IMG/VR virus record: IMGVR_UViG_3300024256_000557 | Source: a virus | Strand: one strand, 5' to 3' | DNA length: 30,628 bases | Shown: positions 1,290 to 6,466 of the stretch, in pieces | Layout: every line of letters starts with the position of its first letter | How positions within the stretch are numbered: position 1 is the first letter of the stretch | Notes under the pieces: generated by a model | Told to the model about the DNA's origin: nothing | The model's input: only the letters and a program-made list of their open reading frames with translations | The model's database searches: none | Translations under genes and position numbers: made by a program

Positions 1290-2365
1290 GCCGAACAAAT
1301 TACTCAACACTCGGTAATTTTTTCGAGTTTGATGAAGATGATTTAGAGTTTGAGAGAGTTACAAATAATATAGATACAGTAGATATTGATTACGGCGTAG
1401 AAGTCATTTTCAAGTATTATAGAAAACACGGTTTCCCTCACTACAAAATACGAGAAGATGAGAAGCATTCTCATATGAGAAAACTGCGTAAATTCGACAC
1501 AACCACTATATTTGAGGACAAGAAAATCATCCAGACTATGCATGCTCTACGGTTAGCCTGGTCCTACTTCCCATATTTTTGGGAAATTCAATGTGGGAAC
1601 TCTATGAAATCCCCAATGGAAACTTTCAATGATGATAAGAAGTTCAAGGCAACAATCAAAAAGTGTTGGACCTGGCAAATAAAACATTGGAGTGGTGAGG
1701 GAATACGGACCCATAATAAGTTTCACGAAAACAGATTACGTCAGTCAATAAAAATTTATACAGGTACACAATCAGTATCTAATTTTAGACCAACAGCTGC
1801 AAAGATGATTTATGAAAAATACGGTGGAGAAGTCATTAGGGATTTTAGCTCTGGATGGGGCGGCAGACTATTGGGGTTCTTAGCATCATCAAATACCAAA
1901 CATTATATTGGTACTGAACCATCCACCAGAGCATACGAAGGTCTATTAGAAATGAAAAAAGATTTTTCGTATTTAGGGAAAAAAGTTGATATATATAAGT
2001 GTGGGTCAGAAACATACAGAACAGATCCTGATATATTAGATTTAGTTTTTACATCACCACCATATTTCGACACTGAGAAATATAGTGATGAACCAACACA
2101 AAGTTATATAAAATTTCCTACATTAGACAGCTGGGTAAATGAATTTTTATTTCAATCATTTGAAAATGGTTATTACGGATTAAAGGATGAGAAGTATATG
2201 ATTATTAATATAGCAAATACATCAAAACATAAAACAATAGTGGGAAGTACAATTAAAGTTGCGGAAAGGGTCGGCTTCACTCACGTAGATACAATACAAT
2301 TAACTCTTTCATCAGTTATGGGGAAAGGTATGAAACTGGAGCCTTGCCTAATTTTTCAAAAATAA
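1286..2365 (+). CDS. Amino (N4-C/N6-A) DNA methyltransferase
   Basis: SAM-binding motif I 'DFSSGWGG' followed by catalytic motif IV 'FTSPPY' (alpha order); GTGA overlap with the upstream gene. Confidence 0.85.
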   Translation: MSRTNYSTLGNFFEFDEDDLEFERVTNNIDTVDIDYGVEVIFKYYRKHGFPHYKIREDEKHSHMRKLRKFDTTTIFEDKKIIQTMHALRLAWSYFPYFWEIQCGNSMKSPMETFNDDKKFKATIKKCWTWQIKHWSGEGIRTHNKFHENRLRQSIKIYTGTQSVSNFRPTAAKMIYEKYGGEVIRDFSSGWGGRLLGFLASSNTKHYIGTEPSTRAYEGLLEMKKDFSYLGKKVDIYKCGSETYRTDPDILDLVFTSPPYFDTEKYSDEPTQSYIKFPTLDSWVNEFLFQSFENGYYGLKDEKYMIINIANTSKHKTIVGSTIKVAERVGFTHVDTIQLTLSSVMGKGMKLEPCLIFQK

Positions 2366-2399
2366 ATGAATAAAATAACTTCATTTTTTTACTTTAGTT

Positions 2400-2407
2400 A
2401 TATTTAT
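2400..2407 (+). promoter_or_regulatory. ATATTTAT putative phage promoter motif upstream of endonuclease cassette 1
   Basis: Intergenic, preceded by a T-rich tract and followed by SD AGGAG. The same octamer lies at 7791 and 11921 in equivalent positions. Confidence 0.45.
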
Positions 2408-2422
2408 TATAGGAGATGATAA

Positions 2423-2608
2423 GTGGGAAGAATAAAGAAACATATTACGGTAGATGAAAAGAAACAAGCTCAACGTAAGTGGTCTTTAGATTATTATCAT
2501 CGAAATAAAGATGAAATAAATAAAGAAAAAATGGAGAAATATTATGAAGAAAAAATTAGGGAGTTTCAAAAGAAATTGTCCGACTTGCGAAAAGGTGATT
2601 ACTTATAA
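2423..2608 (+). CDS. Small basic helical protein (61 aa) overlapping the endonuclease gene
   Basis: AGGAG SD upstream and GTG start; Lys/Arg-rich; overlaps the next ORF by 65 nt. Confidence 0.6.
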   Translation: MGRIKKHITVDEKKQAQRKWSLDYYHRNKDEINKEKMEKYYEEKIREFQKKLSDLRKGDYL

Positions 2609-3221
2609 ACGGAATGATATAATGATTCGAGCTGAATCAATGGGGTTTAAGTGTAGGAGTTGCACTCATAAAGGTGAAAATAATGGAAATTATAAACATG
2701 GATTGATGGTAGGTGATGGAAAAAATAAAAAATGTTTGAATTGTGAGAAGTTGATACACATTAGGTCAGTATATTGAAGGGCGTGTTCAGTAATTGGTGA
2801 TAGAAACCCGTTTTATGGAAAAACTCACACCACATCTGTAATTAATGTTGTTATTAAATCAAATAAAAATAGAGCTGGAGTAAATTGTAAAGATACTACA
2901 AGAAAAAAACACAGAGTAAATATGATAAATAAATTAAAAAAATATCATCCTGATTTCCCAACTGGAGCTCCAATGTATAATGTAAAATCAATTTCGATAA
3001 TAGAACGATACGGAAAAGAAAATAGTTACAACTTCCAACACGCAGAAAACGGCGGTGAAGTTCAAGTGATTGGATATTTTGTAGATGGCTATGACAAAGA
3101 ACGGAATGTAGTGATAGAATACTATGAAAAACATCACAAATATCAAAAAGAACGAGATGAAAGAAGAAAGCAAGAAATAGTTGATCATCTGGGATGTAAA
3201 TTTATAATAATAGAGGAGTAA
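2544..3221 (+). pseudogene. Free-standing homing-type endonuclease (Zn ribbons + NUMOD3-like + Vsr/DUF559-like nuclease), interrupted by one in-frame TGA at 2775-2777
   Basis: ORFs 2544-2777 and 2922-3221 share a frame, and the gap reads RACSVIGDRNPFYGKTH... without further stops. C-terminal 'GYFVDGYDKERNVVIEYYEKHH...LGCKFIII'. Confidence 0.75.
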
Positions 3222-3223
3222 AA

Positions 3224-3772
3224 ATGCACGAAAGTAAAGAAGTATTTTATAAAAATTTGGAGTGGGGAGTAGACATACATACTAATACTATGTATCTCAC
3301 ATACGACATAGATGCAGATAGTTTATATTCAACAATGACCAGATTTGACCAGTTAGTTAAATACAATAAAGGTGAAGATATAAACTTGGTAGTCTCGTCT
3401 TATGGTGGAGATGTTTATGCGATGTTAGGAACAATAGATTATTTCAGATCACTTCCAGTAAAAGTGAATACTCATTGTTTTGGAGTAGCAATGTCCGCAG
3501 CAGCAGTCATCCTCGCATGTGGAACCGGAGTTCGTTCAATGAGCATAAATTCAACAATAATGGTGCATGAGGGTTCAGCATTTGAGTCAGGTAAAACATC
3601 AGATGTACTAAAAGGTGCAGAACACCTGAAAAAATTACAAGCAAATATCAATCGTATTCTCGGTAAAGTAACAAATAAAGACCATAAATTTTGGACGAGA
3701 ATATCTAAAAATGATGTGTATTTAACGGCAGACGAAGCATTGGAATACGGCATTGTTGACATTATAAAATAG
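3224..3772 (+). CDS. clpP: ClpP-like serine protease
   Basis: 'SYGGDV', catalytic Ser in 'AMSAA', His in 'IMVHE', C-terminal 'YLTADEALEYGIVD'. Confidence 0.9.
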   Translation: MHESKEVFYKNLEWGVDIHTNTMYLTYDIDADSLYSTMTRFDQLVKYNKGEDINLVVSSYGGDVYAMLGTIDYFRSLPVKVNTHCFGVAMSAAAVILACGTGVRSMSINSTIMVHEGSAFESGKTSDVLKGAEHLKKLQANINRILGKVTNKDHKFWTRISKNDVYLTADEALEYGIVDIIK

Positions 3773-3784
3773 GAGTTATAAATT

Positions 3785-4207
3785 ATGACTAAATTTATCA
3801 AAGATAATAAAAAAAGAGTAATCTACGGAAACGATGGTTCACCAGATACAATTGAAGTGAACCCACAGTCAAATAACATCATAGACAAAATGGAACGAGA
3901 ATATCCAGAAATGATGAAAGAGTTTCGTAAAATACAAGAAGAACAATATGAGTTATTTGCCAAAAAACAGCAAGCATATGGAAAAAATTCTATTTTAATG
4001 GGTGGTGATATAAATAAATCTGATGATAGACAAATGGCACTATCAGGAGTAGTAATTAGATTGAATGATAAATTACAGAGATTATTAAATCTTGTATTAA
4101 AAAATAAGAAAAGTGCGGTAGATGAAAACGTTGAAGATACATTTATTGACATTGCAAATTATGCTAATATAGCATTGGTTGTTAGTAGAAAAAAATGGGG
4201 AAAATAG
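3785..4207 (+). CDS. DUF1599 / nucleotide-modification-associated domain 1 protein
   Basis: 'KKQQAYG...IRLNDKLQRL...EDTFIDIANY' matches the family pattern (KxxxYG, RxxDKxxR, DTxxDxxNY). Confidence 0.7.
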   Translation: MTKFIKDNKKRVIYGNDGSPDTIEVNPQSNNIIDKMEREYPEMMKEFRKIQEEQYELFAKKQQAYGKNSILMGGDINKSDDRQMALSGVVIRLNDKLQRLLNLVLKNKKSAVDENVEDTFIDIANYANIALVVSRKKWGK

Positions 4208-4316
4208 TTTTTCCTGATAGTTATTATAGAACAAGGACAGCATTCGACGGAGTGTTTCCTGAAACCTGTTTAAGTAAGGATAACTTGTTCTATAACATAA
4301 ATCTGAACAGGAGAAA
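4208..4316 (+). ncRNA. Structured leader upstream of the GIY-YIG gene
   Basis: Perfect 12-bp inverted repeat 4224-4235/4284-4295, inner hairpin 4236-4258, and outer stem 4208-4216/4308-4316 covering the AGGAG SD. Folded by hand only. Confidence 0.5.
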
Positions 4317-4320
4317 TAAA

Positions 4321-5109
4321 ATGATTATCTACAAAGCTACTAACAAAGTCAATAATAAAAGTTATATTGGTCAAACAATTAAACCATTAACACAAAGAAT
4401 ATCAGAACATTTACATGCATAACGAAATGATCCAGCAACCTATTTTCATAGATCAATTAGAAAACATGGGAACGAAAATTTTAGTTGGAAAGTTATAGAT
4501 AATTCAGCAAAATCTATTGGTGAGTTAAATCTATTAGAACAAAAATACATTAAAGAATATCACACATTCCGTGGTGATCCAGAATGTAATGGATATAACT
4601 TAACTACAGGTGGGATGAATAAATTATTGTCAATTGAAACCATTAATAAAATAAGGAATACACGAATATCAAATAATGGTTATGCACACTCAAAGGAATC
4701 ATTAGATAAAATGGTTGCAACTAGAACCAAAAATAACAGTTGGAAACATTCAGATGAAACCAAAGAAAAACTTAGAATATCGAGTACAGGACGTAAACAT
4801 TCAGATGAATCCAAATTAAAAATGTCCATATCTAAAGTAGAATGGCATAAGACTGTTGATATCACTGGAAAGAAAAATCCATTTTATGGTAAAAATCATA
4901 CAGACGAACTTAAACTTTATTTTAAAAAATTATATGCTAAACATTGGATAGTTACATTTCCAAATGGCAACACTAAAACATTTTTAGGTAAAAAAGAAGT
5001 TAAACAGTATATTATGGAGTATACTATGAAAAATAATGAAAAAGTAAGTTACTATAGTTTATTTTATTATGGTAAAAATGGTCACAACTGGAAAGTTGAG
5101 AAGAAATAG
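4321..5109 (+). pseudogene. GIY-YIG homing endonuclease with NUMOD3 repeats, interrupted by one in-frame TAA at 4420-4422
   Basis: 'MIIYKATNKVNNKSYIGQT...QRISEH', then stop, then in-frame 'RNDPATYFHRSIRKHG...ELNLLEQKYI...GYNLTTGG' joining ORF 4615-5109 (NUMOD3-like 'KHSDETKEKL', 'GKKNPFYGKNHT'). Confidence 0.85.
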
Positions 5110-5184
5110 ATGGACACCTTCAGGGACATTTCAGTTTATGGAATTATTGTCGAGATAGTTCGTAGGGGTAGTTGGGGAAAATAA
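5110..5184 (+). pseudogene. Orphan 24-codon copy of the DUF1599 gene 3' end (MDTFRDISVYGIIVEIVRRGSWGK)
   Basis: Ungapped 12/23 amino-acid identity to the last 23 residues of ORF 3785-4207, ending in the same WGK-stop. Confidence 0.75.
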
Positions 5185-5303
5185 TGTATAGTTATAAATG
5201 TGACACTGGACTCTATGAATCAGATTCTTGGATCGGATTGATGATAGAAATAATTAAACATAGAACTTGGCATTTAGTAAACCACGGTAAGTGGATAGAT
5301 TAG
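5184..5303 (+). CDS. Small hypothetical protein, 39 aa (MYSYKCDTGLYESDSWIGLMIEIIKHRTWHLVNHGKWID)
   Basis: Not in the ORF track. TAATG coupling to the upstream remnant; its TAG overlaps the AGGAG SD of the thioredoxin gene. Confidence 0.6.
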   Translation: MYSYKCDTGLYESDSWIGLMIEIIKHRTWHLVNHGKWID

Positions 5304-5313
5304 GAGAAATAAA

Positions 5314-5559
5314 ATGAAAACTGCAGATTATTATACGGCGAACTGGTGTGGTCCCTGTAAAACTTTCAAACCAATCATATTGGAACTTGTGAGTGAGGGA
5401 TATAACATAACATTACACGACATAGATACTGAACGAGATTTGGCACTAACAAATAGAATACAAAGTGTTCCAACGCTCGTCATATCAGAGAACGGTGAAG
5501 AGGTGGATAGATTAGTTGGAGTGCATACAAAACAGTCCGTCATTTCAAAATTGTCTTGA
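5314..5559 (+). CDS. Thioredoxin
   Basis: WCGPC active site; 'IQSVPTL' cis-Pro loop. Confidence 0.9.
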   Translation: MKTADYYTANWCGPCKTFKPIILELVSEGYNITLHDIDTERDLALTNRIQSVPTLVISENGEEVDRLVGVHTKQSVISKLS

Positions 5560-5584
5560 CTTTAACTTATTTTTTACGTATATT
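5556..5584 (+). promoter_or_regulatory. Sigma70-type promoter (TTGACT - 17 nt - TATATT)
   Basis: Near-consensus -35 and -10 hexamers with ideal spacing, just upstream of ATG 5597. Confidence 0.6.
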
Positions 5585-5596
5585 TAGGCATAAAAT

Positions 5597-6466
5597 ATGA
5601 AAAGTATAAGCTATTCGCAATTTTCTAAATGGGATAGGTGTCCTCACGCCTGGAAACTATCTTATGTAGATAAAAAATCTGTATTTGAGGGAAACATTTA
5701 TACAATTTTTGGAACCTCGATGCATGAAGTATTACAAAAATATATAAAAGTAATGTATACAGATAGTGTAAAGAAGGCCGATGAATTATATCTTGATGAA
5801 TTATTAGAAGATAGACTCAGAATAAACTTTTTGGACACTATGAAAACCAATGGTGGTGTAGAGATTTGTACAAAAAATGAAATGAACGAGTTTTACCAAG
5901 ACGGAATAAAAATAATAGATTTCTTTAAGAAGAAACGAAATCAATATTTCAGTAAAAAGGGTTATGAGTTACTTGGCATTGAATCTGCATTAGATTATAA
6001 TATGAAAAAAGCGAAATTTAAGGGATTTATAGATTTGATAATTCGTGACGTTAAACGTGAACGAATAAAAATTATTGATATTAAGACCGCAACATACGGC
6101 TGGAACAAATATCAAAAAGCAGATACGAACAAAACAGCTCAGTTATTGTTATATAAACAGTTCTTCTCTAAGCAGTTTGATGTTCCATTAGATAGAATTG
6201 ACGTAGAGTATTTCATAGTAAAGCGAAAACTATATGAAGGAACAGATTACCCACAAAAACGAATTCAGACATTCATCCCAGCAAATGGTACTCCATCTAT
6301 AAACAAGGTTAATAGACGATTAGAGAGTTTTATAGACAACTGTTTTACAGTGGATGGGGAATACCGAACAGACCATATTTATAGTAAATTACCATCAGTA
6401 AAGAACTGTAAATGGTGTGAATACACAGACCAACCAGATTTGTGTGATAAGAAACCTGAGAATTAA
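5597..6466 (+). CDS. PD-(D/E)XK exonuclease, Cas4/AddB-like with probable Fe-S cysteines
   Basis: 'SISYSQFSKWDRCP', 'GFIDL...IIDIKT', C-terminal 'CKWC...C'. Confidence 0.8.
   Translation: MKSISYSQFSKWDRCPHAWKLSYVDKKSVFEGNIYTIFGTSMHEVLQKYIKVMYTDSVKKADELYLDELLEDRLRINFLDTMKTNGGVEICTKNEMNEFYQDGIKIIDFFKKKRNQYFSKKGYELLGIESALDYNMKKAKFKGFIDLIIRDVKRERIKIIDIKTATYGWNKYQKADTNKTAQLLLYKQFFSKQFDVPLDRIDVEYFIVKRKLYEGTDYPQKRIQTFIPANGTPSINKVNRRLESFIDNCFTVDGEYRTDHIYSKLPSVKNCKWCEYTDQPDLCDKKPEN

Follow-up and report, generated by a model that had tools for sequence, protein, structure and literature searches.

Co-conversion of the DNA beside free-standing endonuclease genes belongs to the textbook biology of phage T4. 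The present analysis concerns a 30,628-nucleotide stretch of viral DNA (IMG/VR record IMGVR_UViG_3300024256_000557; the whole stretch is called the window hereafter), in which a free-standing GIY-YIG homing endonuclease gene stands directly behind a DUF1599 gene and is itself followed by a small open reading frame (ORF) that resembles a second DUF1599 3' end. The free-standing GIY-YIG enzymes of T4 are the Seg endonucleases, with SegF at gene 56 and SegG at gene 32, which are known for intronless homing and marker exclusion; T4 free-standing endonucleases can cut hundreds of bases away from their own gene (PMC2988022). In ICP1 and other phages, nuclease genes mark the edges of exchanged tracts (Barth et al. 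2023, PMC10448857). Two further systems come from eukaryotes. Coughlan et al. (2020, PMC7282813) described WHO elements, relatives of the HO endonuclease, which in Torulaspora and Lachancea yeasts occupy the FBA1 gene region. In the WHO model, a sensitive allele is cut and repaired from the element-bearing genome, with the downstream fragment of the donor serving as a homology arm; the products are a chimera of recipient 5' part and donor 3' part, the endonuclease gene, and a fragment derived from the old 3' end of the recipient (PMC7282813). In fungal mitochondria, mORF gene hybrids were described for atp6 of Allomyces macrogynus and for atp6, atp9, cox2 and nad3 of Glomus (Beaudet et al. 2013, PMC3630166). 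The architecture of the window locus matches that of WHO elements and mORFs and is, as an architecture, already known from eukaryotes.

The resident DUF1599 gene of the window is a chimera, native in its 5' part and foreign in its 3' part. Its ORF (3785-4204) matches DUF1599 (PF07659, nucleotide modification associated domain 1) in Pfam with an expectation value (E) of 1.6e-7 and 32 bits, the gathering cut-off being 25, and 50 DUF1599 homologues were found at E <= 1e-10. Relatives were recovered from viral and metagenome contigs using ClpP as an anchor. Their genes follow the order orf147, orf359, ClpP, DUF1599, (39-amino-acid ORF), thioredoxin and PD-(D/E)XK nuclease, without an endonuclease gene trailing DUF1599: the cassette is absent from this position in L105, L107, L116, L112, L117, L108 and L119. 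Thioredoxin directly follows DUF1599 in L105/L107, L116, L112 and L117, while in L108 and L119 the 39-amino-acid ORF stands between them and its start overlaps the DUF1599 stop as TAATG. The nearest relative is L116, with identities of 91% for orf359, 82% for ClpP and 82% for the PD-(D/E)XK nuclease; over the cassette-free relatives with the same order, the window shows 70-82% identity in ClpP and 81-82% in the PD-(D/E)XK nuclease.

Comparison of the resident DUF1599 protein with L105, L116, L112 and L117 revealed that codons 1-60 have an identity of 61-78%, in line with ClpP, whereas codons 61-140 have just 40-41%. These four relatives are 84-95% identical to each other over codons 61-140, and the part after the EQYELF motif is the better conserved half of DUF1599 among the cassette-free relatives. 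Therefore, about 80 codons are foreign, not 24. A segment-wise comparison against 65 homologues placed residues 1-62 nearest to L001/P0002 and L002/P0007 (up to 28/32 in residues 31-62), residues 63-116 nearest to P0003 (37/54) and residues 117-140 nearest to P0004/P0005 (21/24); P0003, P0004 and P0005 are intact DUF1599 genes of other phage lineages. Informative sites were scored with L105, L112 and L001 as A-type references and L113-L115 as C-type references. Before residue 60, 17 sites are A-type and 3 are C-type, and after it 4 are A-type and 21 are C-type (Fisher 4e-6). The maximum chi-square breakpoint falls between residues 59 and 60, and its statistic was reached in 0/20000 permutations. 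At the DNA level, codons 118-130 are 87-90% identical to the C-type genes of L113/L114 and 82% to that of L115, compared with 54-59% to the A-type genes. The upstream junction at about codon 60 directly follows EQYELF, the most conserved motif of DUF1599. The original prediction, made from the letters of the window, had held that the cassette supplied a diverged C-terminus (4136-4207), with the cut near the D-T-F codons. The foreign 3' end is supported by the breakpoint statistics and by the relatives, but it extends over about 80 codons, not 24, and begins near codon 60, not at D-T-F.

Two extensions of this result were rejected. C-type tails are not always linked to an endonuclease, as no endonuclease gene was found behind the C-type genes P0003 to P0006 (P0003 judged by gene list only; the contigs of P0004-P0006 are about 1 kb or less). 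Inclusion of the thioredoxin gene in the imported tract is unsupported, since its identity of 53-64% is normal at such divergence (L105 versus L117: ClpP 82%, thioredoxin 62%).

The second DUF1599 3' end lies immediately behind the endonuclease gene. ORF 3785-4207 ends in DTFIDIANYANIALVVSRKKWGK and ORF 5110-5184 reads MDTFRDISVYGIIVEIVRRGSWGK, each up to its stop codon, and the two ends share 12/23 amino acids in an ungapped alignment and 46/75 of the last bases including the stop codons. A tail profile made from the last 30 residues of the relatives' DUF1599 proteins, with the window left out, was run on the six-frame translation of the 30.6-kb window. It matched two places, the resident end with E 6.4e-17 and 5110-5181 with E 2.8e-13, the next match having E 0.15. 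In tblastn, the tail of the L105 DUF1599 protein (residues 114-137) also matched 5110-5181, with E 2.6e-8. The similarity is far beyond chance, and 5110-5184 is a real copy of the DUF1599 3' end, as had been predicted with coordinates and strings that were all correct. The sequence TGGGGAAAATA, which the prediction had noted at both ends, is indeed present at 4196-4206 and 5173-5183. However, most relatives carry the same conserved W-G-K-stop codons, and therefore this 11-base repeat is not independent evidence; a target-site duplication was rejected for the same codon conservation. An extension of the relic upstream into the endonuclease C-terminus, as suggested by a tblastn alignment reaching 4990, was also dismissed as a chance extension, with 7 identities outside the 24 codons in a region that homologous endonucleases cover. 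A degenerate DNA pattern for the relic gave no match in the viral contigs.

Among the cassette-free relatives that share the gene order, the closest ones have tails nearer to 5110-5184 than to the resident end, in agreement with the prediction. The L105 tail shares 17/24 amino acids with the relic and 12/24 with the resident end (DNA 54/75 versus 43/75), the L112 tail 16 versus 11 amino acids, and the L001 tail 16 versus 14. The more distant L108 tail does not discriminate between them (12 amino acids to the relic versus 11 to the resident end; DNA 41 versus 50). Among all tails, the best matches of the relic are L105/L002/P0007 (17/24), followed by L112 and L001/P0002 (16/24), and the group of 129-134-amino-acid DUF1599 proteins that includes P0010 shows 16/23. 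The best-matching tails belong to those relatives that are nearest to the window in the 5' part of DUF1599 and in the flanks. At the relic position the closest relatives read ..PTMDAFKD[IL]SVYGIIAQIV.., and because they carry a Met there, the relic ATG is an inherited in-gene Met codon and not a new start. On its right, the relic likewise ends at the ancestral junction, since the TAATG overlap with the 39-amino-acid gene (5182-5186 in the window) is identical in L108 and L119.

These two points bear on whether the 24-codon ORF has been kept through use, either as a translated spacer passing ribosomes to the 39-amino-acid gene or as a micropeptide. Its frame is open with an ATG start, the endonuclease TAG (5107-5109) abuts this ATG, and its TAA (5182-5184) overlaps the ATG at 5184. 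The overlap on which the original prediction had based an intact coupling chain is thus present, but it is no evidence of use, for the ATG and the junction are ancestral, and the ATG, the open frame and the overlap were all inherited from the parent gene. The ORF is also without a ribosome-binding site of its own, as its ATG directly follows the TAG of a gene whose frame is already terminated 229 codons upstream, and the relics at the loci L132, L147 and L148 described below are truncated or frameshifted. In addition, five near-clonal assemblies of the window phage contain 8 polymorphic sites in 5.5 kb, and 2/8 fall within the 75 bases of the relic, one being non-synonymous and the other changing its stop and the next start. 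In L129-L131, the codon containing 5150 encodes Ala instead of Val, which is nearer to the family consensus IIAEIV; in L130, an A>G change at 5184 turns the TAA of the relic into TAG and the ATG of the 39-amino-acid gene into GTG. The presence of 2/8 polymorphic sites in so short a segment suggests weak constraint on it. Maintenance through use is improbable, and 5110-5184 is most likely a non-functional relic. Four of the eight sites (5150, 5184, 5205 and 5324) are bunched within 5150-5324.

Two direct-orientation copies of one gene end might also arise without foreign DNA, by local tandem duplication of the DUF1599 3' end, divergence in place and later insertion of the endonuclease. Resident codons 61-140 are, however, much less similar to the relic and to the window's own relatives than to genes of other lineages, as seen in the tail match to P0004, and the DNA identity of codons 118-130 to L113/L114 is not a product of divergence in place. 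The same chimera has also arisen independently at L132. Such a duplication is very improbable.

We propose that a cassette invaded the DUF1599 gene together with a foreign back half, and that 5110-5184 is the recipient's own displaced end; we put the probability of this reading at roughly 65%. The free-standing GIY-YIG cassette, consisting of leader and gene (4208-5109), would have entered by break repair copied from another phage, in which it followed a DUF1599 gene from a different lineage. On the upstream side, the crossover would have fallen at about codon 60, just past EQYELF, where DUF1599 is most conserved, so that codons 61-140 of the donor came along and now complete the gene. The last 24 codons of the recipient would have escaped replacement and shifted behind the endonuclease gene, where they would still abut the native next gene. 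Afterwards, a nonsense codon would have killed the endonuclease and the relic would have been drifting. The imported end is predicted to be cleavage-resistant. In a model of the WHO type both polarities are expected, the surviving fragment being set by the position of the right-hand crossover. The own-end origin of the relic is favoured because of its clade-specific Met, its native junction with the 39-amino-acid gene and its agreement with the lineage of the 5' part.

Similar to WHO elements, the endonuclease gene in the window lies directly behind a full-length chimeric target gene, and the old 3' end, here probably displaced, is not bound to remain an open frame. Decay to pseudogenes affects endonuclease genes and fragments in both systems, and the phylogenies of the two target halves are discordant. 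Unlike WHO elements, the enzyme is of the GIY-YIG family and not a LAGLIDADG/intein-like zinc-finger protein, and the setting is phage co-infection instead of meiosis. The converted tract spans 80 codons here but the fragment only 24, and no tandem cluster was seen. Allele-specific cleavage is a prediction here. In the mORF hybrids, too, the endonuclease ORF is preceded by a foreign C-terminus and followed by a native C*-terminus, with the native copy grouping with close relatives and the inserted copy elsewhere, and the atp9 case involves a GIY-YIG enzyme, as in the window. They differ in residing in organelle genomes and in that several mORF endonucleases are fused in frame to the upstream gene, whereas the window endonuclease has its own leader and ribosome-binding site.

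The association between this type of endonuclease and DUF1599 is recurrent. When the C-terminal 88 residues were compared by HMMER with 1.8 billion proteins, a few endonucleases that share this domain were recovered; in the viral contigs the domain query gave weak partial matches only. Every placeable endonuclease with this domain lies directly behind DUF1599, whatever gene follows, in seven phage contexts including the window. The contexts besides the window are L132 (P0052), L142/L143 (P0054), L144-L146 (P0173), L147 (P0176), L148 (P0171) and L149/L150/L152/L158. In L147-L152, the window-type C-terminal domain is combined with a LEM-3-type GIY-YIG catalytic domain. Because the catalytic module varies while the C-terminal domain stays linked to DUF1599, the latter is likely the targeting part, so that this Seg-like enzyme likely has a C-terminal domain dedicated to the DUF1599 3' region. 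The reverse combination occurs in P0053, P0055, P0056, P0057 and P0066, in which the window-type N-terminal catalytic module (starting MIIYKATNKVNNKSYIGQTI) is joined to a C-terminal CPHCG...HF.NC zinc finger. Such domain combinations are evidence of module shuffling among marine phage endonucleases.

The L132 locus repeats the pattern of the window, with the 5' part and the stranded fragment of one lineage and the 3' part of another. Its endonuclease is intact and 49% identical overall to that of the window, with much higher identity at both ends. The DUF1599 gene is chimeric near EQYELF, with a boundary at about codon 56-62. The N-terminal part is L012-like (31/42 versus 24/43 for L001) and the C-terminal part is L001-like (67/81 versus 52/81 for L012), with Fisher 6e-4 for the contrast between the two parts. 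Behind the endonuclease stands an L012-like tail fragment, IMATIVGRDKWGK with its stop codon (tail profile E 3.5e-6). In a comparison of 16 of its residues (YNRIMATIVGRDKWGK), L012 matches best, with 12/16.

A different arrangement was found in the contigs that encode P0015 (L149-L158), which have an identical DUF1599 protein and carry the endonuclease gene in 4 genomes and lack it in 6. The genomes without it read ..GEWK-TAA-TG into the PD-(D/E)XK nuclease gene. Those with it have an insertion exactly after the TAA, which ends in ..IQIVNNGKWGK-TAA-TG, so that the last 11 residues and the stop of the endonuclease (L149, L150, L152 and L158) form a DUF1599 tail unlike the resident type and the overlap with the next gene is restored. 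L150/L152 differ from the near-isogenic, endonuclease-free L151/L154 by a clean insertion and one single-nucleotide polymorphism across the whole DUF1599 gene. The tail piece here is clearly cassette-borne and the resident gene native. Tail fragments can therefore travel with the cassette, as this tail is foreign and fused to the endonuclease ORF. The endonuclease ORFs of L147 and L148 end in similar fused tail-like pieces by eye, weakly by profile (E 5.4 and 0.27), and were not counted as cases. The extreme C-termini of the endonuclease ORFs (WKVEKK and IQIVNNGKWGK before the stop, and VIREVV..) may represent an older tail fragment, which is clear in L149-L152 only. Stacked fragments and pseudogenes, as from repeated invasions, were looked for, and each locus shows one relic.

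These observations open a second origin for the window relic. It might be cassette-borne, left over from an earlier host and serving as the downstream homology arm, with the native 3' end of the window having been converted away. The WHO model counts the downstream fragment as part of the element (PMC7282813), and the relic is of mixed tail type. Against this, the relic shares its clade-specific Met and a DISVYGII run with the relatives nearest to the window in 5' part and flanks, keeps a native junction with the 39-amino-acid gene that is absent from the other endonuclease-bearing loci, and has a start 11-14 codons ahead of that of the fused tail pieces at other loci. A cassette-borne relic is unlikely, though less so than retention through use.

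The displaced own end also has points against it, among them the fused tails in the L149-L158 population. Neither a donor with the exact cassette nor a close endonuclease-free sibling of the window phage was found. Only 71% of the relic residues (17/24, or 18/24 if the 5150 codon encodes Ala) are shared with the closest relatives, whose tails are more than 90% alike among themselves, and so the relic is either decayed or not strictly the end of the own lineage. In addition, insertion at a single point is insufficient, because the relic starts at codon 117 and the foreign tract at codon 60.

Three positions are candidates for the cut site. The chimera boundary at codon 60 is a candidate as a boundary found in two loci beside a conserved motif. 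The start of the relic at codon 117, the D-T-F codons near which the cut had been predicted, is another. The near-clean insertion in L150 versus L151 suggests a third possible site within the last few codons. Codon 60 and the extreme 3' end would be equally compatible with a cut as D-T-F.

The endonuclease itself is a pseudogene. Read through its in-frame TAA, the translation of 4321-5106 contains a GIY-YIG domain (Pfam PF01541, E 1.2e-7, residues 2-82) and three stretches of NUMOD3 (PF07460, E 1.2e-12). The TAA at 4420-4422 lies inside the catalytic domain, at a position where homologues have a sense codon, and the same TAA occurs in four further assemblies (L025, L129, L130 and L131). As it is present in all five assemblies of the phage, the gene is a fixed pseudogene. 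Intact frames are found in the homologues P0052, P0054, P0173 and P0176. A close copy of the whole endonuclease protein was not found, and the other GIY-YIG endonuclease genes from viral contigs and phage records share little sequence identity with it. The endonuclease is free-standing: it lies outside any intron or intein, and relatives differ in whether they have one at this locus. A search of 3600-5700 against Rfam gave no RNA family match, so there is no group I intron at the endonuclease. A scan of 3700-5650 for sigma-70 promoters and terminators gave nothing better than shuffled sequence.

The leader (4208-4320) starts right behind the DUF1599 stop, and an AGGAG ribosome-binding site precedes the ATG at 4321. 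Its nucleotide sequence can be aligned with the leaders of L132 and L142. A 12-bp stem, formed by 4224-4235 paired with 4284-4295, is kept in the window, L132 and L142, with one compensatory change from C-G to U-A; an inner hairpin varies in sequence with its pairing kept. By analogy to the T4 leaders, the stem may regulate endonuclease expression (PMC2988022). The segment 4195-4320, which is open in the window and in L132, was considered as an N-terminal extension of the endonuclease and rejected, as L142 has stops in all three forward frames. Similar to T4 Seg endonucleases, to which it is likened by domain build, the enzyme has a GIY-YIG and NUMOD3 build, an intergenic position beside the target gene, an adjacent co-converted segment and a structured leader. 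Unlike for the window, the review of the T4 enzymes describes neither a displaced target end behind a Seg gene nor a tail fused to an endonuclease ORF (PMC2988022).

The features of the locus are collected in Table 1. The window comes from an uncultured marine phage, with near-identical contigs in Saanich Inlet metagenomes from 120 m. The nearest cultured phages are distant, namely Flavobacterium phage immuto and Microcystis phage Mel-JY01 (glycosyltransferase, 43-48% identity). GenBank phage DNA searched with 3224-5600 gave no match, and the search by protein gave distant DUF1599 matches only. In one contig, L124, DUF1599 appears as two abutting ORFs of 103 and 37 amino acids (788-1212), owing to a frameshift or an assembly error.

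Table 1. Features of the DUF1599 locus and its flanks in the window
Feature	Coordinates	Strand	Remark
ClpP	3224-3772	+	
DUF1599 gene, 140 amino acids	3785-4207	+	PF07659
Native 5' part of DUF1599, codons 1-60	3785-3964	+	
Foreign (C-type) 3' tract of DUF1599, codons 61-140	3965-4207	+	
Non-coding endonuclease leader, 113 bases	4208-4320	+	
GIY-YIG + NUMOD3 endonuclease pseudogene	4321-5109	+	in-frame TAA 4420-4422
Endonuclease C-terminal DNA-binding domain	4843-5106	+	
Second DUF1599 3' end, probably displaced, last 24 codons and stop	5110-5184	+	
Native 39-amino-acid gene	5184-5303	+	69% identical to the 39-amino-acid ORF behind DUF1599 in L108 and L119
Thioredoxin gene, downstream flank	5314-5559	+	Pfam PF00085, E 1.6e-14
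PD-(D/E)XK nuclease	5597-6466	+	

A second, apparently broken endonuclease cassette lies between orf359 and ClpP (2366-3223, with ORFs 2423-2608, 2544-2777 and 2922-3221). L116 has an intact 227-amino-acid endonuclease with NUMOD3 motifs at the same position (L116 3315-3998), and L105 and L107 have no cassette there but only an 80-base gap. The contig L118 is 99.9% identical to the window over 2001-3426, a stretch that takes in roughly the first 200 bases of ClpP; beyond it the DNA identity falls to 56%, and the ClpP of L118 is 75% identical overall at the protein level. This drop therefore marks a mosaic boundary just 3' of the second cassette. As in ICP1 (PMC10448857), endonuclease genes thus edge mosaic tracts, here 3965-5109 and the 2366-3223 cassette. 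Unlike the window locus, the ICP1 case as covered by a term search of the same paper contains no mention of remnants or of duplicated or displaced target-gene ends (PMC10448857).

In the literature searched, neither a phage example in which the end of a target gene stands displaced behind a homing endonuclease gene nor a paper tying DUF1599 to homing endonucleases was found. Taking the seven contexts together, a wider picture may be drawn, for and against which we see about even odds. A phage GIY-YIG family with a shared C-terminal domain would have specialised on the 3' region of DUF1599 and spread between marine and freshwater phages in the manner of WHO elements and mORFs. Each invasion would rewrite the back half of the gene from the conserved motif onwards and strand the old end. 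The stranded ends would be carried along, in some lineages forming the C-terminus and stop of the nuclease, with the overlap with the next gene restored.

If true, this would be the first viral example of the end-swapping mode of homing, as far as the literature searched shows. Homing that swaps gene ends and strands the old ones would then not be confined to eukaryotes, and would be carried out in phages by an unrelated nuclease family. It would also provide a mechanism for one kind of mosaicism within phage genes, namely a sharp breakpoint at a conserved motif beside a nuclease gene. The endonuclease-plus and endonuclease-minus siblings (L149-L158), together with the intact homologues, would make the target site, the polarity and the resistance testable in vitro. 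In annotation, small orphan ORFs behind nuclease genes could usefully be explained as relics of gene ends and not as new genes.

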